Shown: piece after piece, positions 3,601 to 29,918 of the stretch
Numbering within the stretch: the stretch's first letter is position 1
Layout of the letters: each line of letters begins with the position of its first letter
Assembly (NCBI GenBank): GCA_963575745.1
Contig: CAUYUJ010000041.1
Location: forward strand, 1-64,000
Direction of reading: 5' to 3'
Source: Prorocentrum cordatum
Lineage: Eukaryota
DNA: 64,000 nucleotides
Program-made: the position numbers and the translations under genes
The notes under the pieces: generated by a model
Databases searched by the model: none
Seen by the model: only the letters and a program-made list of their open reading frames with translations
What the model was told of the DNA's origin: nothing

Positions 3601-6600
3601 CTGCGCGGCCTATCCACCCGGACGTCCGACGCCGTGATCTGTTTTGGGCCATGCTTTTTCGCCCCGCTTTCTCCGCCGCTCTGCTCGGTCCAGGCCGAAC
3701 GAAAAGGGGGGGACAGGGAAAGGGGGGGGGGTACGAAATCTGCTGCATGCAGCTAGTTTTGGCCCCGCCGCCGGGTCCATTCCTCGTTACATGGGCGCCT
3801 CCCGGCGCCGGGAGGCGCCGGGAAAATCAGCTATACTTGGATGGCCGCGGCGGCTGCTAGGTGGTTAGCGCGGATACTAAGGGGTTAGAGGATTTAGTAT
3901 GTACGTACAAGTGAGTTGTAAGTAGGTTATAAGTGTTGTAAGTCGGATGTAAGTTGTATAACCAGCTACAACTGGTTAGTAGGAGATACTAACCACTTTT
4001 AGCTGGAGGCTAACCTTGCTAAGTCTCTAGTAGAGGTTAGCTCGCTAAGTCCCCATTCTAGCTACCACTTACTAACCATTTAGTAACCACTTAGCTGCCA
4101 CTTAGTAACCACCCAGTAACCACTTACTAACCACTTAGTAACCACATAGTAAGTCCGCTAGCTAGCTTACTTACTAAGTGGTTAGCGGACTTACTAAGTG
4201 GTTAGCGGACTCTGAGAAGGAGAAGGAGGAGGAAGAGGAGGAGGAGGAGGAGGAGGAAGAGGAGGGGGAGAGAGGAGGAGGAGGAGAAGGAGGATGAGGA
4301 GGAGGAGAAGGAGGAGGAGATGTCGAGGAGGAGGAGGAGTAGGAGGAGGACGGGGAGGAGGATGAGGAGGAGGAGGAAAGGGGGAGGCGGCGGCGGAGGC
4401 GGCGACGGGCGCGCCTCAGCCCAAGACGGCCGCTCGACGCGGCGGCCCTGCAGGGCCGCCGCGTCGAGCGGCAGCCTGGCGCGGCTGAGCGCGGCGCAGG
4501 CGAAGTTCGCCTGCGCCGCGCTCTGCGCCGCCATCTCCAGCGGCATTGCCGCTGGCGCGGGCGGCGGGGGGGCCCCGCGCGCCGCTCGGCAGCCAGAGCG
4601 GCCCACCGCACGTAGCCGTCGTCCACAACCCAGAGGGTTGGGGGACGACGACGTGCGACGGGCCGATGGCTGCCGAGCCCGCCCCACCCCTCGGGGATGT
4701 CGAGGAGGATCCCCGACATCCCAGAGGGGTCCTCCGAGAGGAGACTGCCCCATGGCTCGGGGTCGCCATCGAAAAACATGTCTTGATATGTTTTTCGATG
4801 GCGATCCCGAGCCGCGAAGCAAAGGGAAAAGGGAGGGCGCGCTCCCCGCGCGGCCTGTAAGCCGCACGCGCGCGGGCGGCGTCTCCTCCTCCCCCCTCCT
4901 TCTATCCTCCTCCTCCTCCTCCTCCTCCCTCTCCTCCTCCTCCTCCTCCTCCTCCTCCTCCTCCTCCTCCTCCTCCTCCTCCTCCTCCTCCTCTCCGCCT
5001 CCTCCTCTCGCCCTCCTCCTCTCGTCATCATCATATACTCCTCCCTCGTCCTCCTCCTCCTCATCCTCCTCCTCGTCCTCCTAACCCTCCGCTCCTCCCT
5101 CGTCCTCCTCCTCCCCTCATCCCCTCCTCCTCCTCCTCCTCCTCCTCCTCCTCCTACTCCTCCCTAGCTCCTCTCTCTCTCCTCTCTCCTCTCCTCCTCC
5201 TCCTCCTCCTCTCCTCCTCCTCCTCCTCCTTCCTCCTCCTCTCCTACGTCCTCCTCCTCCTCCTCCCCCCCCCCCCCTCCTCCTCCCCATCCTCCTCTCG
5301 CTCTGAGCTATCTCGTCGTTTTCCTCCTCCTCATGCTCCTCCTCCTCCTCCTCCTCCTCCTCCTCCTCCTCCTCCTCCTCCCCCTCCCCCTCCTCCACCC
5401 TCCCCCCCTCGTCAGAGGAGAGGGGGAGAGGAGAAGGGGGGGGGGGAGCAAGATGAGGAGGAGGAGCAGCCGTAGGAGCAGGAGGAGGAGGGGGAGAAGG
5501 GGGAGGATGCGGGGAAGGAGGAGTTTGAACGACCGCACCACTGATCAACGACATTAGCGCTGCAGCGCAAGAGGACGAGGAGGAACGAGGCGGAGGAGAG
5601 GAATCGGCGACCATGCACTGTTCAGGTGCTGCAGCACCGAAGTGTCAATGAAAAAGGTGCGCTACAGCGCAATGCAGAAGGAATCCACGTTTTCAAGGCG
5701 GAGAAGAGGAGTCGTCGACCATGCAACGTTCAGGTGCTGCAGCACCGAAGCATTTAGCAATGTAAAAAAAGTGCGCTGCAGCGCCAGTAAGGAATCCACG
5801 TTTTAGGCTAAAGCGCACCACCGCGGCTGCGACCATATCGGGCGCGCCACTCGGATGCCGCCGCCCTCGCGCGGCGCCCACGCGAGCGAGCACACGATGC
5901 TCGCCGTGTGCGCCCAAAAGGCGTCGGCATCGCCGCCAAGCACGTGCGCGGAGGCGCGCGGGTGCAGCTTCTCCTTGAAGAAGTAGGGCAGGACCAAGTT
6001 CAAGCCATAGTAGTGGCCGTTCTTGGTGAAGGAGAGGTGTTTCAACACCTCGGCCGCAATGTGTTCCCCTCCTCCGTCCTCCAACAGCACGACGTCGCCG
6101 TATTTGACGTCGTGGCAGCGGCACCGCGCTGCAGCGGACGTAACAAAGTCCGCAGGCCCGAACTGCTGCAGCAGTTCGCGCGAGATGGCCTTGGACGGCC
6201 TGGTGGCGTTAACCAGGCAGTTAACCTTAAAGGTGTCGCCATCCATGAGCTGCCACAGGTGCCGCTCGGTGACGCTCTTCAGGACATTGGCGCCCCAGCC
6301 GCTGGAGGCTGCAGCCCCCACCTGAAGAGCGTTCGCAAAGCGCTTGCTGGTCTTGTGCTTGCGCCCCAAAACCCAGCGCGACGGCAGCGCCACATGGCCC
6401 CAACGCCTCACGTAGTTGGCGAAGTGGTGCAGGTAATGGAACTTCTGCGCCATCGTTTCCTTGCCAAAGACGCTGCTGTATGACAGCAAAAACATGTTAA
6501 CCGCAGCCTGCAGCTTATCCGCGTCTGCCTGACGCCTGGATACTCGTAGGATTTCTTCCACAACGATCGTGTGCGCCTCGAACACTGCGCAAGCAGATCG

Positions 6601-7702
6601 GACTGCAGGCGCTGCAGCGTCGCTAGCCACCTCCCTGAAGAAACGCGTCAATCCGCCCGCGCGAACGCATGTCCGAACAAGAGGGGTGCAGTACATATCC
6701 TACAGAGATTCACGCGCGCTGCAGCGCATGTATTATTGGTCTGGCGGGGGCGCGAAGCATGCAATGATACTTGCATGGTTGTGAGCCCCTCGCTGGCGGT
6801 GCACTTGAAATGCTTGCTGTCAACGTGGGACCTCACGCGCTTCTCGCCGAAGATCGCGCACGTGTCGGGGGAGATGGAGTGGCACCCTGGAAACGACCAG
6901 TCCTGGAAATATGCGCCTGCGCGCGCCCAGTAACCCTTCAACCTTCGAAACATTTGGAACACCAGAATGTTATATGTACCGTTGACGAAAATACAATGCA
7001 TCCAATCAAACATGACTGTCTCGAGCGGCTTGAGTTTCCGAACCCGCCCAGGCAAATGGGGGCCCCAGTTCCAGCCAAGTCGGCGCTCCAACTCCTGGAA
7101 CCCGCCCTTGTTCATGATGTTGACCCCTTCGATCAATCCGTTGCAGATGGCATCGAGCAACGGCGCCGTCATCGGCTGCAGCCGCGACGCATCTGGTTCC
7201 GAGTGGTGAACAGCGACACCCGTCGCATCAGAAGCAACTATATCCCGAACTTCGCCCTTCAAGAACACGTTGCGGCACATAAAACATGGTTTGATTCCTG
7301 ACAAACCTTTCATTCCGATCAAGCGGTGTATTGCATCCTCGTCCGCGATCCGACAGAGCCGCTGCAGCGACGCAAGAAGGCGTAATGTATATATATATAC
7401 ATGTGCACATGTATGCTAACTAATCTTGGGTGCTATGCGGCGACCGCTGCAGCGGCTGAATGTAAATTCCGAGGTCCATCTGGATGAGCTCCGTCGCGCC
7501 GTCGGGGCGCAGCCGCAAGCTGATGCCTGCGCTGAAGTTGTGCCCCTGATCAGGCCAGAACTGCGCGAGGATTGCGTCCGGTAGCATCGTCAGTCCGCGC
7601 GGCTGGATGTCGTTCGCGGTCTTGGCCCGCATCGTCGCGAGCTGGAACCACGCATCCTGCGAACAAATCGCAGCACAACTGGCGCTGCAGCGCCTCTCTC
7701 TC

Positions 7703-7770
<68 letters not shown>

Positions 7771-10700
7771 CCCCCCTCCCCCCCCCCCGCATATATCGTT
7801 GCTGCAGCAACGCTATCGCGAAAGTCCTCCGACGAAAGCGCCTGCGGGCCGAATTCCGCGATCGCCCAGTAGATGCCCCAGGACTTGCGGTTCTGCACGT
7901 GCGCCAGCGCGTTGCCAGCGCCTATTTCATCGCCGTAAATAATGATGTGCCACGGGCGTGGCAGCTCCAGCGCCCGCTGCCACAGAGGCTGCATCGCGGG
8001 GAGGGCGCTGCAATACCACAGCATTGCTGCTGGACTGCAGATCTCCACCGTGTGCTGCCCGACTACCATGTTCTGGTGGAGCTTGCCGTACGGCGTGTTC
8101 TCACCGACCATGAGCTCCCGAGCGTCTCTGATATCCTGGCGTCGGGATCCCAATTCGGGGGCTCCGTCTCGCTTAACGGACGCCAGGAATTGCGCCATCG
8201 CATTACAATGCATGAATGGCAGTTCCGCGCGAAGGCGGGACAGCCGCCGCAGCTTCGCTGGGCGGTCGTCCTCTGCCGCCATCGCGCGCGTTCCCGAGGC
8301 AAGCTTGCCTCCGTCGCTGCGCGCGCGCGGAGGGCCCCCTCCGCTAGGGGCCACGGCGACTACGGATGGAAATGAGGCTGCACCGCGTGGAGAGCAACCA
8401 AATGCGCGCTGCAGCGCTAACTGCCAAGCAACAGTCTGGGAGCACATGGCGCTACAGCGCCGCTAACGTCCAATGATGACAATCTGACGCGCTGCAGCGC
8501 GAACGTCCTCCTCCTCCTCCATCCTGCTCGCCATCCCCCTCGTCCTCCTCCTCTTCCTCTCCCTCCTATACCTCCTCCTCCTCCTCTTCCTCCTCCTCCT
8601 CCTCCTCCGCCTCATGCGCCCCCTCATCCTCCCCATCCTCCTCCTCAACCTACCCATCCTCCTCATCATCCGTCTCCCGTCCCTTCATCCTCCCCGTCAC
8701 CATCACCTTCATCGTCAACAGCATCAATATCACTCGCCCTCATCATCCGCCACGTCGCTATCCAACGAGAAACTGCAAGCGAAACTGCGCTGCAGCGCAA
8801 CACATTAACACATCATGATCCGCGCGCAAACTTTCAACCGTGGTCCACGGAGAAGCGCTGCAGCGCAACTCAAACAACACGCTCAACCACGTTCCCCCCA
8901 GCCTTTACCAATCAATCGAACCAGCATGCTTCAGCAGGCGGTCGCCGAGGCCGACCTCACTCAGGTCACCTTCATCTTCTTGGCGTTCCGCAGCGAGGTC
9001 AACGCCTCGTTGAGTTTCTGGATGGCCACGACCGAAGCGGCGATGTCCATCTGACCCCGACCCTGCTACTCATACTCCTCATCCTCCCACATCATCGCCT
9101 TCCACCTCCTCCTGATCATCCCCCCTGTCGTCCTTCTCCCCCGCTGCAGTGGGGGAGTAGCCTGCCACACTCATGAACCCCACCGTCCTCCTTCTCATCC
9201 GCCTCCTCATCCACCTGCAGCTCCGCGGTGCGGATCTGCACCTGCTTCTCCGCTTTCCTGGCGTTCTTCCGCGCCTCCTTTACCTCTGCTGTAGCAGTCG
9301 CCGTCGCTCTCGCGCGGGCCTCGCGCAACTCGTCGCGACGGTCGGCGCGCGCTTGCGCTTCGAACGGCTTGTCGCAGCGGCGCGCCGCCATTGCGATCCC
9401 AGTGAGGAGGCGGAGGAGGTCCGTTGCCAGCACCCGCTGCAGCGAACGATGGCGACTGCGACGCGCGAGCCAAGTGAGGAGGAGGAGGAGGAGGGGGAGG
9501 AGGGCATGCCATCGGCAACGCGCAACATGAGCGAATCACAGCGCTGCAGCGCGTGACTTGGCAACAACCATGCGGGAGACAACGCTCGACATCGCGAATG
9601 ATGGCGCCGCGGCGCGTATCGACGAGGAACGACTGGCACTCAAGACGAGCACGTCACGCAATACATGGACACCGCGGCTGCAACTGCACACTCACAAACG
9701 CGCCAACGCTACAACGGCACCACAAGTCTGACAGGCGCTGCAGCGCTGCATCGGAACACAACAGCGCGCAATATCGACGCCACCATCCAGGAAAGCGAGC
9801 GCTGCAGCGCTGCATCGTGATCATGATGGCGATGCAAACGTTGACCACAAAGGCGCCAGCGCTGCAGCGCCCGCATCCACGAGAACCCGTCAACATATTT
9901 GACTTTCATCCTCCTCGTCGTCCGTGCGAGCCGCGCGACCGCCAGGCAAGACCATCGCCACTACCGTTCATATCACCGGCCAGCGTTCCATCCAACCTCG
10001 CACTGATCCTCACCATCCTCCTCATTCCTTCTCCTCCGCATGCTCATCCTCCTCATCATCCTACCCATCCTCCTCCTCGCCCTCATAATCCTCATCCTCA
10101 CCTCCATATGCCGACAGTGCCCGTTGCGCGCTCACGGCTTGCCGCGACGGCCAGTGAAGTTCGGGTCGCGGCACGTGCCGCAGCCATTCGGCAGGTAGCG
10201 GCATTTGCTGCACCCGAGTGCCATTTGGCCCCGTTTGGCTGCCGCCTTGCCCTGGGGCTTGGCCTTGGCCTTGGCTTTGGCCTTCCCTTTGCCCTTGGCC
10301 TTCGGTTTGGCCGTGCCCTTGGCCGCCGTCTTGCCCTTGCCAGCGCCTGTCTTGCTCTTGCCCTTGATCGCGCTCTTGCCCTTGCCCTTCTTGCCCTTGC
10401 CCTTGCCCTTGCCCTTGCGAGGCAGCTCGCCCTTCGCGCTGCCCGCAGCCAAGGTCTCGATCGCCTGCAGCACAGCATCCTCGTCTCCGTCTGCTGCTGC
10501 AGCAGCATCTTCGATTGGCGGCGTTGGCGCTGCTGCAGCAGCATCTGGCGCCGCCGCTGGCAATGCTGGCCCAGCTGGCGAATCACCAATCGCGGGGGGA
10601 CTCGCGGGGGGGCTCGCCGTGGGCGCCGCAGGGCGGCGCGGGAAGAGCTGCAGCTGCAGCTCGTTGGGCGGCGATGGCGGCGGCGCAAACGCTGCCAGCA

Positions 10701-12343
10701 TTTGCTGCATCACGGCCATCGCGTCCATGGGTTGCATTGGCGCTGCAGGCGGCACGGAGGGTGACCCCGATGGCGTCCATGGCACAATGGCAGTGCTCGG
10801 CTGATGCGGTGGGGCGGCAGCCCGCAAGCCCTTGTTGGTCAGCCTGAGAGGCACGCGGGCCTTGATGGCGTTGAGACCCGCAGGCCGCTTCAGCGGCGCA
10901 CGCGCAGCATGAAACCTATCATGCTCTATGCGAGGTGGACCTAAAGGACCGAGCTCACCGAAGCACCCAAGACATCCAGAACAATCAGCGCTGCAGCGCA
11001 TGACGGGGCGGCAGCAGCCTCGTAGATGCGATACCACGTTGGCGAGGTCGCGCGTCACATCGATCGGCGGGTCCGCATCGGCGTACGCCGCGTCGAAGAT
11101 GTACTGAGGGAGCTGCCGGGGATCTGCTGGGAAATTCCAAGTCACTGTCGCCGCTTGCCCCGTCGCGCCCCTGCGGCTCGCCAAGAACTGACCCTGTAAA
11201 GGGCGACTCGTCGGGGAACCCTAACGCTGACGCGCCGCATCGCATTGGCTGCAGTCAGTGCGATGTGATGCGTCTGCGTTAGGCGTCCCCGCCGAATCCC
11301 AAACCTTCATCTCCGCCACGATCCCGTAGAGCTGCCCAGGGTTTGCGTCTGGAAGATGGGCGCATGCCATCAACGCCGCCAACTCTTTCAGCGTGTTCTC
11401 GCTCGGAACCGTCAAGCCGATGGCACCGCAACGTTTGATCAACGCGCGCACCTTCGCGACGATGCTCTGGCTGGGGTCGCGAAATAAACCCCACTCCTGC
11501 ATGGTAAAGTCCACCAGCCTACGCATCGACGCAGGCATGCTGCAGCATGCTAACATACGTACATTTGAAAAATGAACATGGTAACATACATAAAGTACAG
11601 AACAAACAATTAAACCATACATGTGAATAACACTTCGGCGGTCCGATGTGCAAAGCACGATGGATAGCACCGCCCTGACGCGAGCGTCTGCACGCGCAGC
11701 TGGAGCGTGGGCGTCGCCGTGCCCACGCGCGCGGCCAGCGCGGCGCTGAGGCGCGCCTTGTGGCTGTCCGCGAAGCCCGACGCGGTGATTCGATTCTGCA
11801 GGGTAGCTGCTTGGGCAGCCCCGATCGTCCCCAAGTTGTGAAGCTGCAGCTGCACGCTCATGGACAAGGCGGACTGGCTCTGCGCCATCGCGTCGGCGGC
11901 GATGACGCCGATCTGCGATGCGAAGAAGGCGTCGCAGCTGCCCAGGTTATCCAGGATGTGGTTGATGGGTGTGGCCGCAGCCGCGGCAGACATGATGCCC
12001 TCCGCGAGGGCGAGGGGGTGCGCGGACGCTCCGAGGGGAAGCGCGAGGGAGGGCCCCCCACACTGCGAGAGCTGAAGCCACCAGGAAGCGCAGGTGATAA
12101 TAGAGGCCCACAACAGTACAGAATGCTCTGCAGCGCAACAACGAATCGCGTTCCAAATTTAAAGGAAACACCCGTGAGCGCCTGCAGCGCTCAGCAGCAT
12201 CCATCGTCGCAAAGTAACATGAGCGCTGCAGCGCTAAATGCATGGCGCCATGATGGAAAACGCATGTAGTGGGCAAATAGTGGGAGATATATAAAGTGAT
12301 GGAAGGGTAGAGGGAGATAATTAGTGAACACGGGGGGGGGGGT

Positions 12344-12430
<87 letters not shown>

Positions 12431-15400
12431 GGGGGGGGGGGGGGGGGAGGGGGGGGGGGGGGGGGGGGGTGGGGGGGGGCGGGGGGAGATGCGAGGAGAC
12501 ACGGGGGGGAAGGACACGAGCGCGGGCGGGCGGGCGGGCAGGGCACGGGGGGGGGATGCATGATCATGCGAGGAACACGGAAGGGGCGGTGCGAAAGACA
12601 CGGAGGGGTGGGAGGGACATGGGGGAAACACGGGGGGCACGGAAGAGACACGGGAGGGGCACGGGAGTTCGGGGGCGAGCGGGCGGACGGACGCGGGAGC
12701 GGTGCGGAGGGACACGGGCGGGAGCGCACGGAAGGCATGTGGAGACACGGAAGGGGCACGGGAGAGACGCGGGAGAGACACGGGAGACGGATAGGTATAC
12801 ACGGGAGCTCGGGAGCGGGCGGGCGGGCAGACACAGGAGGGACACGGAAGGTGTCCGAGGAGGGCGCGGGACGTATTCAGGAGATGCGCGAAGTGTGATC
12901 AGGAGCAAATACCGAAGCGATCTGGGAGCCTCGAAGGCAGCTGGGACATCGACAGAGGCGTGTCTGTTCAATAGAGGGGGCTATTGAACAGACACGGGCG
13001 TGGCTGTTCAATAGAGGGGGCTATTGAACATGGCATGTTCAATAGAGGGGGCTATTGAACAGACACGGGCGTGGCTGTTCAATAGAGGGGGATATTGAAC
13101 AGACACGCCGCTGTCAGACAGCATCACCTCTGCAGAGGGGCACCGACGCTCTCAGATCGCTTCACCCGGAGCTCCCGTTCGACCTCAGATCAGCCATCCT
13201 GATGCCAACATCCAGCACTCCAGCCCACCCCAACGCCCACCCACGCAGTCCCAGAACACTGTCCACACTGCTGATTACGAGGTGGGAGTGAAACTAAGAG
13301 AGGCGCGAAGTACATCACGCGGCGCTGCTGCAGCAGCGTCGCGACGAGGTTGACGATGCCGACACCGCTGTCAACTGCAAAGATTTACGCTCACGGCTCT
13401 GCTGCAGCAGCGTCGCGATGGCTCGAGACTGCTGAGGACAAGGCCGATGGGAGCTGGCGAGGCTGCCAGGAGGCCATGGGGGGAGCTACTCGGCGGCGCA
13501 ACGAACTGTGCTGAAGGGGAGCAGGGAGAGTGGCGAAGGGCGATGCGATGCGAGACTGTTTGCCATCTGAAGTGCCCCAGGACCCCCCCAAGTGCCCCCA
13601 AACTTTCCTGGCCAATCCAAGGCCGACCCCTGGCACATCAGTCCATGCAAAAAAATGTCAGCGGATCAGGATGTGAACGTCGACGATGGCAGATAGATGT
13701 GATGAGGATATCGGAGCGCCTTTCTGGGCGACAGCGCGGGCGCACCACGCGATCTGGCGCACGAAATATAACCTGGCCTAAACACATGCATGCGCCGGCG
13801 TCAGCTATGCTCGCGAACTGATCCAGTCCACCCCCCCATTGCTCCCATTGATCTTACATGTTGGGTTGCTACAGCATGTATCCTATCACTATGCGTTCGT
13901 TGTCCCCCTCGCTCACGGGAGAGTGGATACCCGCTGCAGCGGGCATCCTGTCTACCGTCTCTCTCCAATGTGTCTTCACTCCACCCCCACGCTGCGTCTC
14001 CATCGCCCCCCTCGCATTCCCTATGTATATCACGTCTCCCCCCTGTCTACCTCTACTATAGTCCCCCCTCTCCCCCTGTCTACCTCTACTGAGTTACCGT
14101 CCCATTCCGTCGCCCATGTAGTGAAATGCTCCGCGGCGGCCCCCCATGCTCCGCGGTGGCGCGCCGCGGCTCTCATGTGGGCGCTGCAGCGCCAAGGCGC
14201 TCGGCGGCGCCTCCGCCCTCGGCGCCCTGCAGGGGCCGCTCGGCGGCCGCCTCCGCCCTCGGCGCTCGGCGGCGCGCACTCGGCGCTCGGCGGCCGCCTC
14301 CGCCCTCGGCGCTCGGCGCGGCCGCCTCCGCCCTCGGCGCCCGGCGCGCCCTCGGCGCTCGGCGGCCGCCTCCGCCTCCGCCCCCGCGGCCTCACCCGCG
14401 GCCTCCTCCCTCCTCATGAGGCGCCCCTCGGCGCCTGCGCCTCCTCGGCGGCCCCCTCGCCGCCAGCGCCGACCCAGACCTCTGCTGGGCCAGCGTAGTA
14501 CTCCTCGGCCAGGGCGGCGGCGTCGGCGCACTCGCCCGCCAGCAGCAGCTCGCAGAGCTGCTGCGCCCTGTTGAACCAGCCGCCCCGCCGCCCTTGCCCT
14601 TGCCCTTGCCCTTGGACAAGCTTGCCCTTGCCGCCCTTGCTCTTGTCCTTGCCCTTGCCCTTGCAAGGTGGGCCGCCGCCGTCCTTGTCCTTGTCCTTGC
14701 CCTTGCCCTTTCTGCAAGGTGGGCCGCCGACGTTGTCCTTGTCCTTGTCCTTGCCCTTGCCCTTGCCCTTGCCCTTGCAAGGTGGGCCGTCGCTGCCATG
14801 CGGGGCGGCGCGCGACGTCGGCCGCGGCCGCGCCTTGGCGGCAGCGAGCAGCGCGCCTGGTGGCGGCACCGCAGGCGGCGTCGGCCGCATGCGGCCGACG
14901 CCGCCGTCGTCGTCCTGCAGGACGTCCTGCAGCACGTCGAACTCCTCGATGTCCTCGTCGTAGTCGAGCGACGCCATCGCTGCAGCGAGGCTGCAGTTCG
15001 CCAAGCTGCATGATGGGCTTGGTTTCCACCACCAGTACCATAAGTTGGAGGGAGAGGTCCTCCTCCTCTTCTTTCTCCTCCTCCTCCTTCTCCAACATAT
15101 GGTATAGTGGTGGTGGAAACCAGTCCCATCACTGCAGCTGAAGCTGCACTCGGGCGCGCGGGCGCGCGACGCTGCAGCGCGCGAAGCTGCAGCTGCAGCT
15201 GCACGGAACAAAAACAGCGGCGGTGCCAACGACGAATACGATGGCGACGACGCTGACGACGACGGACCCCTGCTAACCAATCGACTGACCCCCCAAAGTA
15301 ACATCACCCCGCAAAGTAACTTCACCCCCAACTGAACCTCCGAAGGCCAACGACTGGATTGACCTCCCCAGGGCTGCCCCCTCAGGATAGGAGGAGGAGG

Positions 15401-18400
15401 GGGAGGAGGATGAGGGGGAGGAGGAGGATTGGAGGGAGAGGAGGAGGGGGGGGAGGAGGGGGGGCAGGAGAAGGAGGAGGAGGAGGAGGACACTGATGAG
15501 GAGGAGAAGAAGGAGAGGGAGGAGGAGGAGAAGGAGGAGGAGAAGGAGGAGTAGGAGAATGAGAGGGAGGATGAGGAGGAGGAGGAGGAGGAGGAGGAGG
15601 AGGAGGAGGAGGAGGAGAGGGAGTATGCGGAGGCAGGAATAGGCAGAAGGATCGGGGGGGCGGGGCACGGGTGCCAACTGGTTGTCTTCCTCCCCCTCCT
15701 CCTCGTCATACTCCTCGTCCTCGGCCTCCTTCTCCTCCTCCTCCTCCTCCTCCTCATCATCATCATCATCCTGCCCCCCCTTCCCCTGCTCCGAGGTGCT
15801 GGCAGCGAGCGGTGGGAACCTGTGAAAATGAGGGCGTTCCAGAACGTCGTCCTCAATGTCGTCGTCCTCCTGATCACCCTCCTCCTCCTCATCATCATCC
15901 TCCCTCCACCTTCTTCTCCTGCATGCGCTGCTCTCAATTACGTCGTCTTTAACGCCGTCGTCGTTGTCTCTGTCGCCGTCGCCGCCGTCGCGATGCTGTA
16001 TCCGACTGAAACAGTGGTGCTGCAGCACTGACCGCGCGCGCGCCGCGCGCCCGTCACTTCCGCGGCTTCTTCGCGACGTGGTATTGGACTGCCAGCGCAA
16101 CCGCTGTCTCGCGGTCCCCGCGCTGAAGCGCTTCCCGAATCATGTCGCACACAAGCTTCCACATGCCAACCTTGGTCTCAGCATCGCGATTGCGCGCGGC
16201 TGCAGCCGCGCGCGGGGCTGGCACATCACTGGCGGCTGCAGCCGCGGTCCTCGTCGACGTCGGAGGCGGCGGTGGCGGCGGCGGCGGCGGAGGTGGGGGA
16301 GTAGCCGCATATGTCGCATCCGATGCAGCGGACTTCGCCTTCGGCGGCGGCACTGGCTCCGAGGGAAGCCGCCATGGCGGCGTCGCTGCGCTCATGTTGG
16401 CAGCCATTGATGTTCTGATCACAGGTGGCTGCGAACCACATGCAATAACAGAAAGCGAACATGCGGGCTGCAAGCGCGATCGAAGCGCTACATCAACACG
16501 CCAGACACACAACATGTAAGTCAGCGCTGCAGCGCGACGCAAAAATCTGATATCGGCACGCCAGACACCCGAACGTAAATCAGCGCTGCAGCACGATGGA
16601 CCCCAAACACACGAAACGCAAGTCAGCGCTGCAGCGCCGTGAGGTCACACACCGACGGCGGCAACGCGTGAGAGGCACACTTGATCGTAGTGTCGTCGTG
16701 CTGCAGCACGCTTGAGCATACCAACGATTCGCAATGACACCAACAGTAGCGAACATTGGGGGGATCCACCAACAATCCGCAATTATTATCCCAATCCTCC
16801 TCTTCCTTCTCCTCCTCGCCCTCGTCCTCGTGCTCGTCCTCCTCGCTGCCATTCTCAATCGCACTGCCGACCGTGATCGCACGCCCCAGCGATGCGGTCG
16901 ACCGAGCGCGCCGCAGCTCAGTCCGAGTCGGCCTCCTCCTCCTCCGCATCGCCCTCCGCCTCCGCTTCCATCTCCTGGAGCTCATCCGCTTCGCAATCCT
17001 TGAGTTCGGCGGTGCACCACTTCGCCGCGGCCGCTTCAGCGTCATCCTTGCTGCAGCCGCGGTTTGTGCGGAACAAGGCCGTCCTGCTGCAACCGCAGTC
17101 TGTGCGGACGGCCCGCCAAGCTTGGAGCCGCTGCACCCAATAGATGCGGGCGCCGCAAGGAACGTCGGTCTCGTGGCGCCGCGGGCGCTTCAGCACCGTG
17201 CTCGCCTCTGCCGCCTCCGCCGCCTCCTGAAGCAATTTGGCCTTGATGTACTCTACGCCCTTCTCGTGCAGCACCACCTGCAGCTTGTCCCTCCCCCCCT
17301 ATGAGGTGGGGGAATGACAATCTGCAGCTCTGTTGCCTCCGTATCGCCAAACGGCGGCAGCTGCGCTGTCTTGAAGCACTTGTCCACTGGAACCTGGCGA
17401 CTGGCGCGGCCGGACCGCGTGGTCGGGCGGCGGCCTGGCTCCGCTGCAGCGAAGAGCGTCGTCGGCGCCGTTGGCCCCGACGACGCGGTGCGCTGATTTT
17501 TCAGCCACGTTAGGAACATCGTGCCTCGCAAGCCCTGAGCCTTGCCGCACACCCACTTGCTCCAACCTGCGGTGGTCACGGTGATACACTCGCGGTCTCC
17601 GATGACCTCGACGGCCGCGACCAGCTCGCGCCCCGTACGGTTGTCGTGCAACACGACGCAGTCGCGCTTGATCGTCGTCATCGCGCGCGCGGCGCGCCGA
17701 GGCTGCAGCCCGAGCGCGGTCGCACTTCAGCGCCAAAATTGCTGCGATGGAGTGATGAGGCAACATGTGCGCGGACGAGGTGCTCATGATGAGGTGCGCT
17801 GCAGCGCATGTGAAAGATGAAGCGAAGAGCAACGATCACATCGAGCACAACAGTGATGACGAAGCCGCTGCAGCGGCATGTCTGTGGGAAAGGCTGATGT
17901 CAGCACCAATATTGTACAGTCGCTGCAGCGACGATGCTGGCGCAACGAATCGTTCCGCGCGCTGCAGCGCCGCGGCAAGTATCGCACTTCGCACCAACCC
18001 GCACACTGTTTACACCAATCGGAGGGCCACGCTCGGTGCCGTCATGTGCGCTCGCCGCTCCTTAAGCCCCCTCATCCTCCTCCCTATGCCAAACCTTACC
18101 CTGCCTCCTCCTCCTCCTCCGCATCACCCCTCCCTCCTGCCTCATCCTCCCGCGTGGTCCCTCTATATCGCCAGCTCAGGCCGTCCTGAGCTTCTTGGCT
18201 GGCCGCGGCTGCAGCCGCGGCCACGGCTTCACCACCAGGAAGTCGCCCGCGGACAGGGCGCAAGTGTTATGCATCTGGGGCACCCCCACCTGCACCTTGT
18301 TGACGCCTGTCCCGAACGTCACGGTCTCCTTTCGGAGCTCCATGTTGGGCTCTGAGTCGGACTTTGCCACCACCCAGAAGGGGCTGACAAAGGCGTCGGG

Positions 18401-21400
18401 GCCCCGCGACCCCTCAGCGGGGGGCCCTGCGAACTGCGGGCCCACGAAGAACTCGTAGAGGCCAACCTTCCCCAACGAGATGCTCTCCGCAACGCAGCCC
18501 GTGCTGACCCGCGTGGACGAGGCTGAAATGCGACCACTCCCACCGCGTGGAGCTACATGGCGCGCAGTCGGTAACATCACTGACCTCGTCGCTACGGCCT
18601 GACGTGCCCCGAAATCCTCGCTACCTCGTGCTCAGCGCAGCGCTGCAGCGCGGCGTCGTCGGAGGGGGGCGCGGACGATTGCGGAAGCACAAGTCTGACG
18701 AGCTCACCCACTTTGAACGCTCGCTTGCAGCGCACGGCAGGTGGGTCCTGCAGGATCTCCAAGTGCAAAATGTTCGCCTGGTACTTCAGCGCTTGGAGCC
18801 GCAGCGCCATGTTGCATGCCCCCTTGAACGCGTCCATCGCCCAACCCTCGTGGGCTGGCGGCAAGTGCTCCTTCGTGAACGGCAACTGCTCCTGCACCCT
18901 GGACGTCAACTTGTAATTCTCGAGCAATATGTTTACTTCAATCCGCCCGCTCGGCTAACTGCTCCGTGCGCTGCAGCGCATCGACCAACCCATTGCAACT
19001 TAAGTACAGGAAATACAATATCGCAGTTACTACCTCCTCCTCCCCCCTCCCTGCTCCCCACGGGCGGCGGGGTGGCTGCGGCCGCGCAATGGAGATCTCT
19101 TCGCCCACCAGGTCGCCGTGCAACTTCTTCTGAGCGGTGATCCCATTCTCCGAGATGGAGAGCACCTCGAAGACGTCATCCACCTCCTTCTTCTGGACGA
19201 TGTGCTTCCCCACGTCGAACCCTGCACGCCGCATGCGGAAGACGTTGCTCTTCAACTCAGCGGCCGACGACGCTGCCGCGCGCGGCGCGTCTGCATCGGC
19301 GCTCGCTGGGAACTCGGGTGCGCCATCGCCTTGCTTGTCGGTCTGCACCGCCTTGCCGAACTCGATCCCCAAGCTCTTCATCTGCAGCTGGGCTGGCTCC
19401 CCGAGCTCATGGAGGAAGACCTCTCTGGAGGGTCGCTGCAGCGACATTGAATGGCGAAAAGCAGGGAGGGAGGGAAACAAGGAGCACACGAAAGGTGGCG
19501 TGAGAAGATACCTGTGCTATATCTGCTACGCATCCGAAAGTGCGGTCTCCTGGCGCTCGCTTCTTCACCAGGTACATGGCACAGCGGACATCCAACTTTG
19601 TGATGTGCAAGAAGCCCTGCTCCGCTCCGATATCCAACCTCTTCACGAGCGACCTTGCGTCGGCCATGAGGTTGTCGGCCGCAGCCACGTCCGCCTTGCG
19701 GGACGCGACGTGGACGATCTCGTTTGCCTTGATCCGCCCATCGCTTCAGCGATTGCGTTTGGGAATAAAGCAATGTAACGGTGCGTGTGTGTGTGTGGGG
19801 AGGGGGGAGGGGTGGGTACGCAGTTCTAACAATGCAGCGCAATGCATAGATGCGCTGCAGCGCATGTCACTACAAGGGGGCGCCGACAAGCTTATGGATG
19901 GTCCTGCACATGCTATCCACCACGTGCTCGCCTGAATAGTTGGCCTTCACGAGCGCCGCTACGACATACGGGTACGACTCCTGGTGCTTCCCCCATTTAA
20001 TCGAATTCAACTTGCGCCAAATTCAGAGCCGCACATCAAAGTTTGCCCCGAGACGTCCACATTCGTGAAGGTCTTGAGGGCTTCATCTATTTCACGGAGA
20101 AGTTCTCCGTTTTGTGGCCCGAGCTCAACAAACTTGCACAAGTCAGCGATCCACGCCTTGCAAGGTGGGTTCGCGTGGCCCGCTTGCTCGGCGATGTCGC
20201 GCCAATCGGGCTTGCTGGAACCCTCAGCGAGGCTGTGTGCCAAGAGCATCCGCCCACCTGCCTGCAGCAAGCGCCGAGCCGATCAAGTGCTGCAGCACTG
20301 TAAGATATAATGCTCCTGCTCCTCGTTCTCACCTCCTCCCCAACGCGCTCCCACTCATCACCCTCCTCGTGCATCATCCTGGTCCTTACTACATACCGCT
20401 ATATACTATAGTGGGGATAGGCTGCAGCCTGACCGAATGATCTCGGTCTCGTGAACCGCCTCCCTGACGTCGGCGTTCAAAGCCCTCTGCACGAAGTTCT
20501 TGAGGCCCTTCACTTTGGCCACCGCGTGCTTGATGATCAACCACGTCAGGCCCTTTTTGACTGCCGTCGCAAGTTGCGGATGCAACGCGCACAGCTTTTC
20601 GGAGTCGATGTTGTCCCGAGAGTCTGCCAGCGCCTTCACTGTGGTCGGCGCCTTGGCCAGCACGCAGCGGAGGAAGACGTTCGTGTGGGAGCCGCCCACT
20701 GACGTATACCGCAATGAGTCCAGCGGGGGGCACCGACCCCCGCTGAGCCGCGAAAGGCGGTCGTTCGCCATCGCGGTCTCTTCCAACTGCGCCCCCTGCG
20801 GGGCCTCGAAGGCAGTGGCTGCAGCCGTCTTGGCCAAGACGAAGCCCTGGGCGCAAATCTTCGCGCCTAAATTGTGAGCCCGCGCAGGGTTCACTAACGA
20901 ACCGCTGCGGTTCCGAATGTCGATGCCCATCTGGTTCGGTGGGACCTGCTGGTAATACGCTAGCCCCTCCGCCAGCAGGAACTCCTTCAGTTGATCCCAC
21001 CCCGATGCCAACCTCCCCGAGGAATTGCTTTCCTCGATGTACTGCAAGATCTGCTCCTCCTGACGCGCCTGCAGCGCCATGCCAGCGCTATATATAGCGC
21101 CGAATGCAACGTGCGAGCCCGCGGGCGCGACGGCGGATGCGGCGCGCGGCCGCAGCTTGAGACAAGCTGTCGCGCGGCGTGCGCGGGAACATCGACTTGC
21201 ATGGACATGCAATTTGCGAGCAAACATGTTGATCTGGGCTGCAGCCCGAGGCCCATGAAGCACGAGCGCGCACGCGCTGCAGCGCGATGCGACATCACGA
21301 CGACAACCATTTTTTTGCGCTGCAGCGCAAAGTAACATACGTGCTATCAAATTTGGAGCGCTGCTGCGCTCAATGCGACCATTGAAAAACAACGAATACA

Positions 21401-24400
21401 ACAAAACAGAATTGACATGTGCATTCAAATTCCTTGCAAACGGAGCTGGGCGAAAATGAAGATCCGAACAACGTGCGACTAGAAAACATGCATTTAACTC
21501 AACATTCAGCGCTGCAGCGCTTCATCTTCAGCGCACGCAGCGCTTCATGTTCATATAAATCCGAAGGCAGCGCTGCAGCGCTTCTCATATTTAAAGCAAA
21601 AATCCAGGACACCGACTCCAAATCAAAATGCAAAATTTGTAGCGCTGCAGCGCTCAACGAACAAACTCAGCTCTTTCAAGACGTGGATTTACCTTTTTTC
21701 CCTGTGCATGGCCCTTGGATAACAAGTGCAATGTAACCGCTAAGTCACTTATAACCTACTTAGCAAACTAGCTATAAGCGGTTATAAGTGGTTAGCTAAG
21801 TGCGCTAAGCACTTAGCTAACTGGTTATAAGTGGATAGCTAAGTACTTACTAAGTCATTACTAAGTGGGCCACTTAGTAATGACTGAGTAAGTACTTAGC
21901 TAAGTCCGCTAACTACTTACTAAGTACTTAACTTAGCGTAGTAAGTATGTTAAGTACTTAGCAACCGCCGCGGCCATCCAAGTACGCGAGCTGATTCTCA
22001 AACCCCCCCTTTGCTATCCCCCCCTTTCGCCCCGCCCGACCGGTGTCTCGCCTTCCCTTTTTTCGCCTCCTTGGGCCTGCCGGGAGGCCTTCCTCGCCAC
22101 GGGCTGGGCTCGCCTCGAGATGCTGGTCAGAACGCGCCCTGGAGAGAGGCCTCGCGAGCAGTGGTATGTGTACCTTTTGTTTTTGTTCCCCACTGGGGGT
22201 CCTGGCCCCCTCCCTGGAAGAATGCCCATCGGAGGGGCACCAAGCGTACACCGCCACCAGCCCTGGCCAGGTCCATCCTGGGCCCTTGACTGGCTCCTTG
22301 CCTAGGCCAGAAAGGCCTGTACACCAAGTCCGGGTCCCGCGAGATCGGCCTGGCCAGGGCTGGTGGCGGTGTATTGTTTGGAGCTCTCCTGGCCCAGACA
22401 GGCGACGTGTTTTTCTTTCAATGCGCTGCCCCCGGAAGTCTCGACTGCTCCTCCTTATCCTCCTCCTCCTCCTCCTCCTCCTCCTCCTCCTCCTCCTTTT
22501 CTTCTCTTTCCTCCTCCTCCTCCGCGTTCCTCCTCCTCCTCCTCCTCCTCCTCCTCCTCCTTCTCCACGTTCCTCCTCCTGTTCCTCCTCTCCCCCCTCC
22601 TCCTCCTCCTCTTCCTCCTCCTCCTCCTCCTCCTCTTCCTCCTCCTCCTCCTCTCCCCAGGCACGACTTTCCATCCGGAGTCGTACTTACTTCGGCGGTC
22701 CCGGGGCCCGTCGCGACGCGAGCCCGGGGCCCCAGGGCCCTCACAGATCGATGCGGCTGAGGTCGGGCTTAGGGGGATGTTGGGCGAAAATTTAAGCACC
22801 CACACATACCCCAGAACATTCAAAAACATGTATTGGAAAAGTGCCCCCAGGCTATTTTTCCCAACCGTCCTGTGGTGTTGGGTCCTCGTTTTGAAGAGAC
22901 GTCGCCCCGCGGTCCTTCCTCCTCCTCCTCCTCCTTCCTCCTCCTCCCCTTCCTCCCCCCTCCTCCCCCTCCCACACCCATTCTGGCACACCCCTCACAC
23001 GCTTCGTGGCCCCATGGGGAGCTCCACCGAAGGCCCCAGTGGCTGCGCCCGCATGCGGTTCCACCCACCGTTCTGGCACACCCCTCACACGTTTCGTGGC
23101 CTCATAGGGAGCTCCACCGAAGGCCCCAGTGGCTGCGCCCGCATGCGGTTCCACCCCCCATTCTGGCACACCCCTCACACGTTTCGTGGCCCCATAGGGA
23201 GCTCCACCGAAGGCCCCAGTGGCTGCGCCCGCATGCGGTTCCACCCCCCATTTCTGGCACACCCCTCACACGCTTCGTGGGTGGCTCCATGGGGAGCTCC
23301 ACCGAACGCCCCAGTGGCTGCGCTCGCATGTGGTTCCCCCCCCCCATTTCGGCACACCCCTCACACGGTTCGTGGCCCCATAGAGAGCTCCACCGAAGGC
23401 CCCAGTGGCTGCGCTCGCATGCGGTTCCACCCCCTTTTTCGGCACGCCCTTCACACGTCTCGTGGCCCCATAGGGAGCTCCACCGAACGCCGCAGTGGCT
23501 GCGCTCGCATGCGGTTCCACCCCCCATTTCGGCACACCCCTCACACGTTTCGTGGCTCCATAGGGAGCTCCACCGAAGGCCCCAGTGGCTGCGCTGGCAT
23601 GCGGTTCCACACCCCATTCTGGCACACCCCTCGCACGTTTCGTGGCCCCATAGGGGGCTCCACCAAAGGTCCCAGTGGCACTGCCCGCTTGCGTCCGCCA
23701 CCACCCAGCACAGCCCTTGTTCCCTGCGCTTCACCCACCCAGAACAGCGCTTCGTAGCCCTATAGGGAGCTCCACCAAAGGTCCCAGCGGCACCGCCCGC
23801 ATGCGTCCGCCACCACCCTGCGCAGCCCTTGCTCCCTGCCTGCGTTTCACCCACCCAGTACAGCGTTTCGTGGCCCCATAGGGAGCTCCACCGAAGGTCC
23901 CAGTGGCACCGCTCGCATGCGTCCGCCACCACGCAGCACAGCCCTTGCTGACCGCGTCTCACCCACCCAGTACAGCGTTTCGTGGCCCCATAGGGAGCTC
24001 CACCGAAGGTCCCAGTGGCACCGCCCGCATGCGTCCGCCACCACCCAGCACAATTGCGGCATTCACAACTGCATATGGTTGGGTCCTTCGCCAGGCTAAT
24101 TTCAAACTATTTGTGAATATTCCTCATGTAGAGGGACAGGCCCGACTTAAGCTGCGGCTCGAACCTGGCAAAGACTGGCGCCGCCCCTTGCGCCCTCCGC
24201 ACGCCAGGACGGGCGTTCAAGAGATCCGCGCGGAGCCCCGAAGGTTTTTGGTTTGTGCAGCCTTTTCTCGTCGGTTCCCAGGGACCGAGCTTCTCATCCT
24301 GAGCAGCGTGTGGGCCACCACGGTGCGCGTGGGCTGGCCCCCGGAGAGTCTCGAGTGGCTCAAACAGCCCCCCGTGGCGATTTCCCACGACGCGGGAAGT

Positions 24401-27400: not shown

Positions 27401-28708
27401 TGATGTTCCAACTTATTTTAGCATTGATCACCAGAGAATTTCGAGCACCAGAACAAAGTGCCGAAACTCGAGGGGTTTCACATGTCGGGCCCTGGGAGAC
27501 ACTCGCCCGACACTGTTTCGACACTCTTTCGATACTCTTTGGACACTTTTCCCGGTGCTCGAAATTATTTCTGGGATGCGGTCCTTAAGTAGGATGGGAA
27601 CAACATGACGCCAGACCTTGCTCGGGCGTGTTCGGACGTTTCCGTCGGCCTTCTGGCCTCGGGGGGACCTCCAGCAGCTGCGCTCCGCCGAGGGCGCTCC
27701 GGGGGGCGCCCGGGTCGTCCCGAGCAGCCGCCGGAGGCCCGAGCTGTGGCCCGCGGGCGCCGCTTCCTGCAGGGGCCCCAGGCGGCCCCCTCAAGTGCCC
27801 CGCGGGCTCCAGAAGGTGCACGAGCGGCGCGCGCTTCGTCCTCCTCCTCCTCCTCCTCCTCCTCCTCCTCCTCTTTCCTCCTCCCTCCTCCCTCCTCCCT
27901 TCTCCCTCCTCCCTCCTCCCTCCTCCCTCCTCATCGGACACCCGTCATCGGACACCCGAACCTAGTGGAGTTCTTGGACGCTAAAGGGCCCACTGATACT
28001 TGTCAGGTGCTCGCTTGCAGCGGGGACCGCCGGGCGACCTTCCAAGGAGCTTGCGCGGGCGGACCTTCCAGCGATCGCCACGAAAAAGAGAAGCCCCCAC
28101 GTCACTGAACACCCGAGCAATTCCTGTGGCGGGGGGCCCGATCGCCGACGGCATGTTTTCGTTCCATCCCACTGTTTCCGATGTCAAGAAACACTCAGGA
28201 GGGAAAGAAACACACAGACGCAATTAATCGTCGAGTCCCAGGAAAATATGGGAAAATATGGGAAAATATGGGAAGTGGGGGAAGACAGCAATCCAGAAAA
28301 TATGGAAAATGATGAGAAATCTTTTTATTTGTGTATTTATTTGTATGTTTGTAGGCCCCTTTAAACACCCTGCTTGCCTCCAGGGTGCCCTGGGTATCCT
28401 TGGGTTTCGATGCTTCTGCGATGGATAAACGCATGCCCAGGATAAGGAATCATCCCCCCCTTCACCATTGAGAGTTGATTATCTCCGGCCAGGACAGAGT
28501 CGGTCCAGGGAGAGGGGCGGCGAGGCCGAACTTTCTCATCGCGGAGGAATATGACGATTCGAAGTTGTTATCTGCCTGTGTCGAGTAGCAGTATCATCAT
28601 CACCCCACGTGTTGCAAGGCTATAGGGTATTCTCTAGGATTATGGCTCCAACCGCTATTTTTACTATTACTACTACCACTACCACTACTATTACGACGAC
28701 TACTCCTG

Positions 28709-28741
<33 letters not shown>

Positions 28742-28917
28742 TCATAATTCATGCTAATGCTATTATTATTACTACACCGGCTACTACAAACACCTACTCA
28801 GCGGCTAGAATCTTATTACTACTACTACTACTACTACGGCTACTACGACTCCTACTGCCATTTCTTCTTCTACTATATTTATTGCTCTACTATCACGTGT
28901 AGTACTGCTACTATTGT

Positions 28918-28967
<50 letters not shown>

Positions 28968-29794
28968 GGCTATTACTAGTAGTACTACTACAACTACTGC
29001 TGTCTCTGCTTCGTTTACTAGTACGAGGAGCCAACTCGCATTACGAGTATTACTAATGTAATTACTATTAGTAACTATTAGTATTAAGACCACTACTACG
29101 ACCACTACTATTATTACTGCAACTACGGTTCGTACTGAAATTCCACGACTACGGCAAGCACTGCAACTACGATTCGTACTACTACTATTTCTACTACCAC
29201 TACTACTTACGACTACTATAACTACTGCTACTACTACTTCCACTACTACTCCCACTACTACTATTATTACTACTACTACTACTACTACTACTACCAGTAA
29301 TACTCTAGACTACTGCTACCAAGCAGTATTACTAACAACAGATCCTCTTTTTTGCAACATAGTCATCCCACGTGTGGCAGGGCTATAGCACATTCTGTAT
29401 ACGTACAGCCTCAACCGCTACTACTCCTACTACTAAAACCAGTTCTAGTACGACTACTACTGCTACTACTGCTGCTACTACTGCTACTGCTGCTACTACT
29501 GCTACTAGCATTTCTACTCCTACTAAAACTAGTGCTGCTACGATTACGATTCTTCGTACTACCACCGCCACCACCACCACTACTACCACTACGGCTCCGA
29601 CCGCGACTACTACTAGTACTTCTACCCTATCACTACTGTTGTTCTTGCTGCAACTGCCACTACTACTATTACTACTACTACTACCACCATCTCGACTGCT
29701 ACTACTGCTGCAACTGCTACTACTACTACTACTACTACGACTACTACCCCTATCACTACTACCATTAGCGTTAGTACTAGTACTACGACTGTCA

Positions 29795-29831
<37 letters not shown>

Positions 29832-29887
29832 TATTGCTACTATTACTGCTCGTGCTACTGTTACTGCTGTTGTCGCTACTACTACTC

Positions 29888-29918
<31 letters not shown>

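Follow-up and report, generated by a model that had tools for sequence, protein, structure and literature searches.

A recurrent palindrome with variable, self-complementary arms in a multicopy mobile element of Prorocentrum cordatum-like DNA

In a 64-kb stretch of Prorocentrum cordatum DNA (contig CAUYUJ010000041.1, positions 1 to 64,000; hereafter the window), the 8-bp palindrome GCTGCAGC occurs 68 times, and 67 of these sites lie within the body of a multicopy mobile DNA element of P. cordatum-like DNA that is ~18 kb long. The 8-bp core is read by its sequence, which has been maintained across a long divergence between related elements, whereas the base pairs that flank it vary from site to site yet nearly always remain complementary to each other. 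We tentatively read the sites as an inherited, element-specific cis-feature of an ~18-kb multicopy family of dinoflagellate DNA transposons with a RAG1-fold transposase, in which the arms may have been made symmetrical by copying.

The core palindrome and its flanking pairs

Using 100 dinucleotide-preserving shuffles of the window, we obtained an expectation of 2.29 copies of GCTGCAGC (SD 1.49; maximum 7), which places the observed count at an excess of ~30-fold. The sites within the element fall between 5559 and 21651, and the remaining 48 kb, of similar G+C content, contain a single copy at 25156. The sites occur in exons, in introns, and outside the mapped gene models. We detected no regular spacing among the 67 sites of the body (coefficient of variation 0.93 versus 0.99 in simulations; P = 0.34). 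CTGCAG hexamers in the region (n = 90) are flanked by G..C in 67 cases, by C..G in 3, by T..A in 1, and by A..T in none; because 67/90 carry G..C, we consider the outer pair of the core to be read as sequence and the next three pairs to be variable. Among all palindromes with arms of at least 5 bp, 69/122 are centered on CTGCAG inside the region, compared to 4/108 outside it.

Most sites are palindromic well beyond the core. Across the 68 sites, the half-palindrome length is 4 (3 sites), 5 (13 sites), 6 (20 sites), 7 (22 sites), 8 (6 sites), or 9, 10, 11, and 12 (1 site each). In the region, at least one complementary pair is added to the core in 65/67 sites, at least two pairs in 52/67, and at least three in 32/67. 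Redealing the right flanks among the sites 10,000 times gave corresponding means of 27.5, 14.6, and 4.1, with maxima of 39, 25, and 12. The initial annotation of this DNA, made from the letters alone, had listed variant palindromes at 5625, 5733, 7797, 11535, 13323, 13930, 16192 (22 bp), 17864, 17919, 19432, 18200 (24 bp), 20286, and 20419, and all of them were found where it had placed them. Its claim that the arms differ between sites yet stay self-complementary, even inside open reading frames (ORFs), also held, as seen at exonic sites that encode ELLQQF and SAAAR, and the comparison with shuffled flanks that it had proposed showed arm lengths in excess of the expectation from composition. 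As a control, we examined other GC-rich perfect 8-mer palindromes, of which 34/76 inside the region and 62/189 outside it are extended by at least one pair; arm extension is specific to the GCTGCAGC core.

We pooled the window sites with those of three related contigs (L001 to L003, described below) for a total of 99 sites. Flanking pair 1 is complementary in 95/99 sites, pair 2 in 74/95, and pair 3 in 41/74, each count being conditional on the inner pairs, against expectations of 0.43, 0.39, and 0.29 from the make-up of the columns. The fourth pair is at chance level (13/41). Since complementarity is found in three flanking pairs and drops to chance at the fourth, the unit can be described as a 14-bp dyad, N3-GCTGCAGC-N3', with complementarity declining steadily away from the dyad on a scale of 1 to 3 bp. 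At pair 1, the pooled sites carry C-G (60), T-A (18), G-C (10), or A-T (7), and 4 are non-complementary. There was no excess of G.T-type first mismatches among the 99 sites (19 G/T versus 20 A/C). In 16 decayed sites that retain at least two complementary flanking pairs, central changes were seen in 7; these were of mixed type, with no clear deamination-type spectrum.

One account of this symmetry is that the sites are operator-type sites for a homodimeric DNA-binding protein, symmetrical by descent through local duplication of a few symmetric founders. The 12-mer GCGCTGCAGCGC dominates (27/67 sites, including extended forms), arm types match in 15/28 pairs of neighbors within 120 bp (6.1 expected; P = 0.0002), and some sites lie within short tandem units (5628/5736 and 16526/16585/16628), all of which would suit such a history. 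However, if the half-sites were read independently, ~43% of sites should be complementary at pair 1, and one-sided forms should be frequent. With 95/99 observed, we rejected independent reading of half-sites by a dimer, and the view of the initial annotation that the pattern is not simple sequence recognition is borne out. One-sided intermediates are almost absent (18 T..A versus 4 non-complementary sites at pair 1), the window holds 28 distinct site types (counted to at most three flanking pairs), and rare symmetric types recur at unrelated positions and in other contigs. We therefore regard symmetry by descent from a few operators as very unlikely.

A by-product of composition or codon use is the least probable explanation of all, with a likelihood that we consider negligible. 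The string GCG-CTG-CAG-CGC (Ala-Leu-Gln-Arg) joins common GC-rich codons; the 12-mer encodes ALQR on both strands, and exonic sites give AAA, LQ, or CS. Against this, the shuffles yield 2.3 sites versus 68, the 48 kb of similar G+C content have one, and sites are as frequent or more frequent outside exons than in them. Within the ORF at 5806 to 6696, all three Ala-Ala-Ala runs (3/3) are spelled GCT-GCA-GCN, and the adjoining third-codon positions are complementary, which argues for a constraint on the nucleic acid rather than on the protein. An artifact of composition or codon use was thus rejected by the sequence shuffles and by the test of flanks and control palindromes.

Perfect palindromes of 20, 22, 24, and 44 bp are also centered on CTGCAG in or beside the element (Table 1). 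The longest of these, the 44-bp palindrome, has the same CTGCAG center as the sites, but its adjoining pair is C..G instead of G..C. Two further long perfect palindromes have other centers, one of 32 bp at 14874 to 14905 (center GCATGC) and one of 26 bp at 3794 to 3819 (center GGCGCC). The remainder of the window contains no perfect palindrome of >22 bp, and the longest ones there are simple TA/TG repeats.

With respect to site arrangement, we also observed that 8/66 neighbor spacings measure 36 to 43 bp, compared to 1.8 expected (P = 0.0006, for a bin picked post hoc); examples are 6128/6165, 10496/10532, 16199/16235, 17922/17961, and 21238/21276. At 10647 to 10660 and at 15186 to 15199, two sites overlap (GCTGCAGCTGCAGC), and their cores are shifted by 6 bp relative to each other. 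A nearly pure stretch of ~155 G (92% matches) lies in mid-element at 12332 to 12486 and is followed by tandem repeats of 20 to 71 bp at 12677 to 13107, and the largest gap between sites, 1,102 bp, covers this stretch.

The host element, its proteins, and its relatives

The window is eukaryotic nuclear DNA, and the region that the initial annotation had called an element is a mobile one. Within the window, the CCACTTAGTAA-type repeat family is confined to the two edge blocks of the candidate element (Table 1), and the best match between these blocks is 26 nt at 92% identity, in inverted orientation. Exact termini and a target-site duplication were not found at the ~18-kb candidate element. We identified at least six distinct P. 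cordatum transposase proteins on different contigs, as well as a cluster of 22 members for a second conserved gene (gene 2), and the window copy of the transposase differs from its relative P0001 by residue changes. Sixteen sequencing runs contain part of a 10-kb stretch of the element, in some cases a small share. Based on the distinct paralogues on different contigs and the residue differences of the window copy, we conclude that the element is multicopy.

The transposase gene of the window carries residue changes and frame breaks compared to its relatives. Its ORF at 5806 to 6696 on the reverse strand has 98% identity to a Prorocentrum cordatum protein, relatives of the transposase and of gene 2 on small contigs have 48 to 72% identity, and an exhaustive HMMER search with the transposase returned 1,503 relatives. 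The related metagenome contig L001 encodes an uninterrupted 554-amino-acid ORF (4058 to 5719) that is collinear with window positions 7371 to 5806. No Pfam family matched this ORF at E values up to 0.1, and among 48 full-length transposase relatives, none matched PF18759 (Plavaka) or PF02992 (Transposase_21) at E values up to 0.001. In the ESM Atlas, feature scores of 0.94 to 0.96 linked the protein to clusters with Plavaka in 11% or 94% of members and Transposase_21 in 12%, and a structural template modeling (TM) score of 0.65 linked it to clusters with Transposase_21 in 58% or 87% of members; the protein thus resembles Plavaka/Transposase_21 clusters, which we take as a lead rather than as a curated match. 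The consensus of the transposase alignment contains a DWMH..F..GV motif, and in this alignment D152 is invariant and E368 nearly so.

AlphaFold modeled the transposase from 56 sequences with a predicted local distance difference test score (pLDDT) of 78.3 and a predicted TM score (pTM) of 0.79. Foldseek searches of this model against the PDB gave no match at E values up to 0.001 (Foldseek alone gave an E value of 0.047), and comparison of the transposase with PDB sequences gave no match at E values up to 1. In structural alignment, residues 26 to 416 of the model matched residues 673 to 1007 of RAG1 (the RAG1/ProtoRAG core) with a Z score of 14.0 and a root-mean-square deviation of 4.7 Å over 289 residues, albeit with 11 to 14% identity; the top 26 rows of the structure-match list are RAG1 or RAGL throughout. 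On the predicted structure, we classify the protein as a cut-and-paste transposase of the DDE type whose fold resembles that of RAG1, and it probably belongs to a KDZ/CACTA-like group. The model has a catalytic fold like that of the RAG1 core, but the PDB sequence comparison gave no sequence-level relationship to RAG1 or Transib. Given the outcome of the Pfam membership test, we did not file it under Plavaka or Transib. The public name of relatives P0001 and P0017, “RNA-directed RNA polymerase,” is unsupported by Pfam, the Atlas, or the fold, which is that of a DDE transposase. Residues 415 to 541 of the L001 ORF (window ~6200 to 5830, reverse strand) form a beta-rich C-terminal domain in the model that is similar to BAH domains (ZMET2, DNMT1, ORC1; Z scores of 7 to 9.5), and such a chromatin-reader domain is odd for a host whose chromatin is largely without nucleosomes.

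The gene-2 ORF at 20409 to 21080 on the reverse strand has homologues with up to 100% identity, and those named as P. cordatum reach up to 99%. Gene 2 had no match in Pfam or in the ESM Atlas.

The palindromic sites recur in related elements. Contig L001, whose transposase has 59% protein identity to that of the window, contains 25 copies of GCTGCAGC in 6088 bp, and 24/25 are extended; the density of one site per 235 bp is near-equal to that of the window element (one per 244 bp), although the two have diverged. Contigs L002 (34% identity) and L003 (31%) contain four and two sites, respectively, all of which are extended; their arms measure 6 bp, and most are of the type GTGCTGCAGCAC. The still more distant L004 to L006 (23 to 30% identity) contain two, one, and zero sites with little or no extension. 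The common arm type depends on lineage, as GCGC..GCGC prevails in the window and L001 and GTGC..GCAC in L002 and L003.

We compared L001 with the window in ungapped, protein-anchored blocks that cover 2,475 nt at 64% identity. Within these blocks, 4/8 L001 sites lie exactly on window sites and two more lie within 1 to 3 nt, whereas 107/2,282 other 8-mers (4.7%) are identical. A whole-length MAFFT alignment placed 16/24 L001 sites on window sites, versus 2.8% of other 8-mers, and this figure is an upper bound because the aligner tends to pair such words in poorly conserved DNA. An unusual arm, GTTGCTG(C/T)AGCAAC, is conserved at one intron position in the window and L001. Judged by eye, L001 sites are no closer than chance to the ends of conserved coding blocks. 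To judge from these sequence comparisons, arm-symmetric sites are an inherited trait of the family of related elements.

Sites have also been gained or lost without indels. The window-only sites at 6165 and 6128 encode ELLQQF and SAAAR where L001 encodes ELTKYF and SPSAK, and the L001-only sites at 198 and 5530 likewise involve no indels. The window-only sites show several base differences without a change in length; at 64% identity, single events are indistinguishable.

Copying, structure, and pairing as candidate explanations of the arms

The initial annotation had offered a pair of explanations, selection on hairpin or cruciform structure and a mutational process that symmetrizes the flanks, and both stand. 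We lean towards the second, as copy-type symmetrization at a maintained core, over selection on DNA structure, while holding it tentatively. Copying initiated at the dyad would hold one to three variable pairs in Watson-Crick complementarity at the DNA level. For example, a fold-back or hairpin intermediate would form once the core has been cut or nicked, off-center opening or a template switch would follow, and mismatch correction would then rewrite one arm from its partner with no change in length. A mutation in either arm would be repaired or mirrored, the arms could drift across sites and lineages with their self-complementarity kept, and rare long copying tracts might produce the perfect palindromes of 20 to 44 bp. 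The element's own transposase is a candidate for the enzyme, by analogy with its closest solved relatives, which are of the RAG1 type and work via DNA hairpins. Copying is favored by the gradual decay of complementarity, by the tail of long palindromes on CTGCAG, and by the arm types that neighbors share. A more specific form, in which the RAG1-fold transposase or a partner repeatedly nicks and hairpin-reseals dozens of internal dyads and rewrites one arm in each cycle, strikes us as doubtful.

Several observations weigh against symmetrization by copying. The conservation of site positions and the equal density of sites in two diverged elements would fit plain purifying selection equally well. 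Non-core GC-rich palindromes are extended only slightly more often inside the element than outside (45% versus 33%). Between the window and L001, three changes that look compensatory fall in weakly aligned stretches, and the formation of hairpins by this transposase family is an assumption drawn from a modeled fold match at 11 to 14% identity. Free half-sites are not depleted, since 54/108 GCGCTG and 247/381 GCTG occurrences lie outside full sites; a reaction that requires only a half-site is therefore unsupported.

Selection on DNA structure is possible, though we rate it below copying. Sites would fold as hairpins in single-stranded DNA, or as protein-stabilized cruciforms, and thereby serve the element, for instance in synapsis, in replication, or as targets that the transposase or an accessory protein recognizes; purifying or compensatory selection would maintain the arms. 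A fixed core with variable paired arms is the classic mark of a site that is read by structure, and the intolerance of wobble pairs is as DNA predicts. Such selection would also account for the conserved positions (4 to 6 of 8 sites versus 4.7% of other 8-mers), the equal density in two diverged elements, the clusters at both ends of the body, and the lineage-dependent arm types in which complementarity is retained. Predicted hairpin energies point the other way: 10-mers reach −1.0 to −1.2 kcal/mol and 12- to 14-mers −3 to −6 kcal/mol, and 34% of sites, which at above −2 kcal/mol would not self-fold, weaken the case for selection driven by stability. So does the lack of stability compensation, as an A/T first pair is not accompanied by significantly longer arms (P = 0.13). 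In addition, complementarity is strictest (96%) at the pair that contributes least to an already marginal stem, and perfect palindromes of 20 to 44 bp exceed functional need. To our knowledge, palindromes of 14 bp are shorter than any that extrude cruciforms.

A role in RNA seems improbable, more so than either of the above. Transcripts could form mini-hairpins with UGCA loops, or sites could pair with each other through the 8-nt core and, for example, bridge intron ends. In the two mapped genes, 8/13 sites are intronic (773 of ~3,540 nt; P = 0.002, in a post hoc test), and each of the four mapped introns, of which three belong to the transposase gene and the fourth to gene 2, has two sites near its ends (~7841 to 7681, 7470 to 7251, 6776 to 6541, and 20426 to 20271, on the reverse strand). 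The window and L001 have the first intron and both of its sites in common, although the remainder of that intron has diverged. RNA hairpins of 12 to 14 nt are predicted at −4.6 to −6.4 kcal/mol, and any two sites could pair via the self-complementary core (8 to 10 nt). However, there is no tolerance of G.U, pairing between sites does not demand that each be palindromic, and sites are also exonic and beyond the mapped gene models, terminal clusters included. The intron borders themselves are approximate, as they come from TBLASTN with predicted proteins of other copies.

Introners of the dinoflagellate Amoebophrya offer a parallel, in that their introns carry inverted repeats of 8 to 20 nt at the ends that join these ends and can bring exon borders together (PMC7789003). 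The likeness lies in the paired sites of 4/4 mapped introns of the window. Introner repeats are complementary across the ends of one intron, family-specific, and found only in introns, whereas each window site is self-complementary on one fixed core, exons hold 5/13 of the genic sites, and the majority of all sites fall outside mapped genes.

Other features of the window, comparable systems, and implications

The coordinates of the element and its parts are collected in Table 1.

Table 1. Positions of the palindromic sites, long palindromes, genes, and edge blocks of the element in the window
Feature	Coordinates	Strand	Remarks
Candidate full element	3900..21960		~18 kb, between two AT-richer blocks of CCACTTAGTAA-type repeats
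Left edge block	3900..4211		11-bp ACCACTTAGTA repeats, then a 20-bp unit x2
44-bp perfect palindrome	4429..4472		Centered on CCTGCAGG; after the left edge block and before the first GCTGCAGC site
Palindrome-rich body	5559..21651		67 GCTGCAGC sites; mean spacing 244 bp; random placement
Left terminal cluster	5559..5782		Intact sites at 5559, 5628, 5736, and 5775; decayed GCTACAGC at 5661
Transposase gene	5806..8282	-	Exons 8282-7842, 7680-7471, 7250-6777, and 6540-5806, by TBLASTN of P. cordatum gene models
20-bp perfect palindrome	6159..6178		In a transposase exon; encodes ELLQQF where L001 has ELTKYF; length unchanged
22-bp perfect palindrome	16192..16213		On the core
24-bp perfect palindrome	18200..18223		On the core
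Gene 2 (conserved, unknown family)	19918..21080	-	224-amino-acid ORF and downstream exons
Right terminal cluster	21238..21651		Six sites; identical 14-mer AGCGCTGCAGCGCT x3 at 21511, 21572, and 21644
Right edge block	21735..21960		Repeats of the left block's family
Lone GCTGCAGC beyond the element	25156..25163		Arms without extension

Beyond these features, the Pfam scan of 115 window ORFs gave nothing credible among the ORFs of the element, and it identified a fragment of a signal peptide peptidase in the window. An ORF pair at 42041 to 46064 on the reverse strand is LINE-like: it contains an endonuclease/exonuclease/phosphatase domain (E = 9.8e-9) and weakly matches reverse transcriptase (E = 5e-4). 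The window yielded no transfer RNA gene and no match to an Rfam family. The element contains or adjoins long tracts of the trinucleotides GAG/CTC and AGG/TCC (4214 to 5523, 8506 to 8664, 15389 to 15617, and 22448 to 22972), and L001 ends in a long ACT tract past its final two sites. To the right of the element, tandem arrays occur at 22977 to 24052 (90 bp x7.9) and 28662 to 29935 (112 bp x3.7), with a degenerate TAC array of ~1.3 kb farther on. A phage or prophage origin was rejected: megablast against phage records found no match, a scan of viral contigs found no relative, and a search of 121 ORFs against PHROGs returned a single weak match (E = 8.5e-4).

Iterated palindromes similar to HIP1 have gone unexplained for decades, and HIP motifs have reportedly been linked to methyltransferases, in work from 2015 that is attributed to Elhai. 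HIP1 (GCGATCGC), a highly iterated palindrome, is a cyanobacterial octamer that is maintained above neutral expectation and whose function is unsettled (PMC5861425). HIP1 and the window motif are alike as GC-rich octamer palindromes that are present in many-fold excess in both coding and non-coding DNA. They differ in distribution, since HIP1 is bacterial and genome-wide, whereas the window motif belongs to one eukaryotic mobile element family, with 67/68 sites in 16 kb. The accessible portion of the HIP1 account also describes the motif without covarying arms (PMC5861425), which the window sites have.

Template switching at quasi-palindromes preserves length and can alter more than one base in a single step, which is what the ELLQQF site would require. 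It acts on any quasi-palindrome, however, whereas the extension in the window is limited to one core (65/67 versus 34/76 and 62/189), is long-lasting, and is common to diverged elements. P nucleotides, which arise in V(D)J recombination by RAG1/2 and in hAT and Transib transposition, are palindromic stretches of a few bases from off-center hairpin opening. The window arms are similar in extending 1 to 3 bp past the core, and the modeled fold of the transposase is nearest to the RAG1/ProtoRAG core (Z score of 14.0). P nucleotides lengthen junctions, however, whereas window sites arise within codons without indels, and hairpin chemistry of the window transposase is presumed.

Integron attC sites and REP elements with RAYT transposases are recognized by their fold, and their variable stems covary. 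Unlike the window sites, attC and REP sites are longer, imperfect, extragenic, and bacterial, and they are processed by tyrosine recombinases or HUH enzymes; searches with 121 ORFs (PHROGs) and 115 ORFs (Pfam) of the window revealed no enzyme of either class. In CACTA (En/Spm) elements, a short subterminal motif is clustered near both ends, and a protein of the element binds it, preferentially where it forms inverted dimers. The window sites also cluster near both ends of a large cut-and-paste element, but CACTA motifs occupy the subterminal few hundred bases and have no covarying arms, whereas the window sites occur throughout the 16-kb body. In its accessible part, a report that mapped 5-hydroxymethyluracil gives TG-rich motifs and not the GCTGCAGC palindrome (bioRxiv 10.1101/2023.11.30.569493). 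Searches of full-text literature outside subscription journals, on the motif as a palindrome, on palindromic transposable elements in dinoflagellates, and on Plavaka in dinoflagellates, yielded no published description of the feature. An iterated palindrome of this type, tied to an element and with self-symmetric variable arms, may be new.

Confinement to a single mobile element family means that the cause of the motif must travel with the element, and arms that are variable yet complementary provide a built-in readout that distinguishes pairing or copying from recognition of specific bases. If selection maintains the arms, the element would require ~4 structured sites per kb. If hairpin-type rewriting of the arms is true, it would constitute natural site-directed, self-correcting mutation that is able to alter conserved protein residues, and it would connect RAG1 chemistry with a little-known family of transposases in dinoflagellates and other eukaryotes. 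Should the transposase or its partner reseal dozens of dyads, which we doubt, the process would be a P-nucleotide-like, length-preserving gene conversion, with self-repairing sites, mirror-drifting arms, and overwritten codons, and would represent a new sequence-specific mutational drive that shapes the DNA and proteins of mobile elements. Under either copying or selection, the palindrome provides a new marker with which the family can be traced in dinoflagellate genomes, which are very large and poorly annotated.

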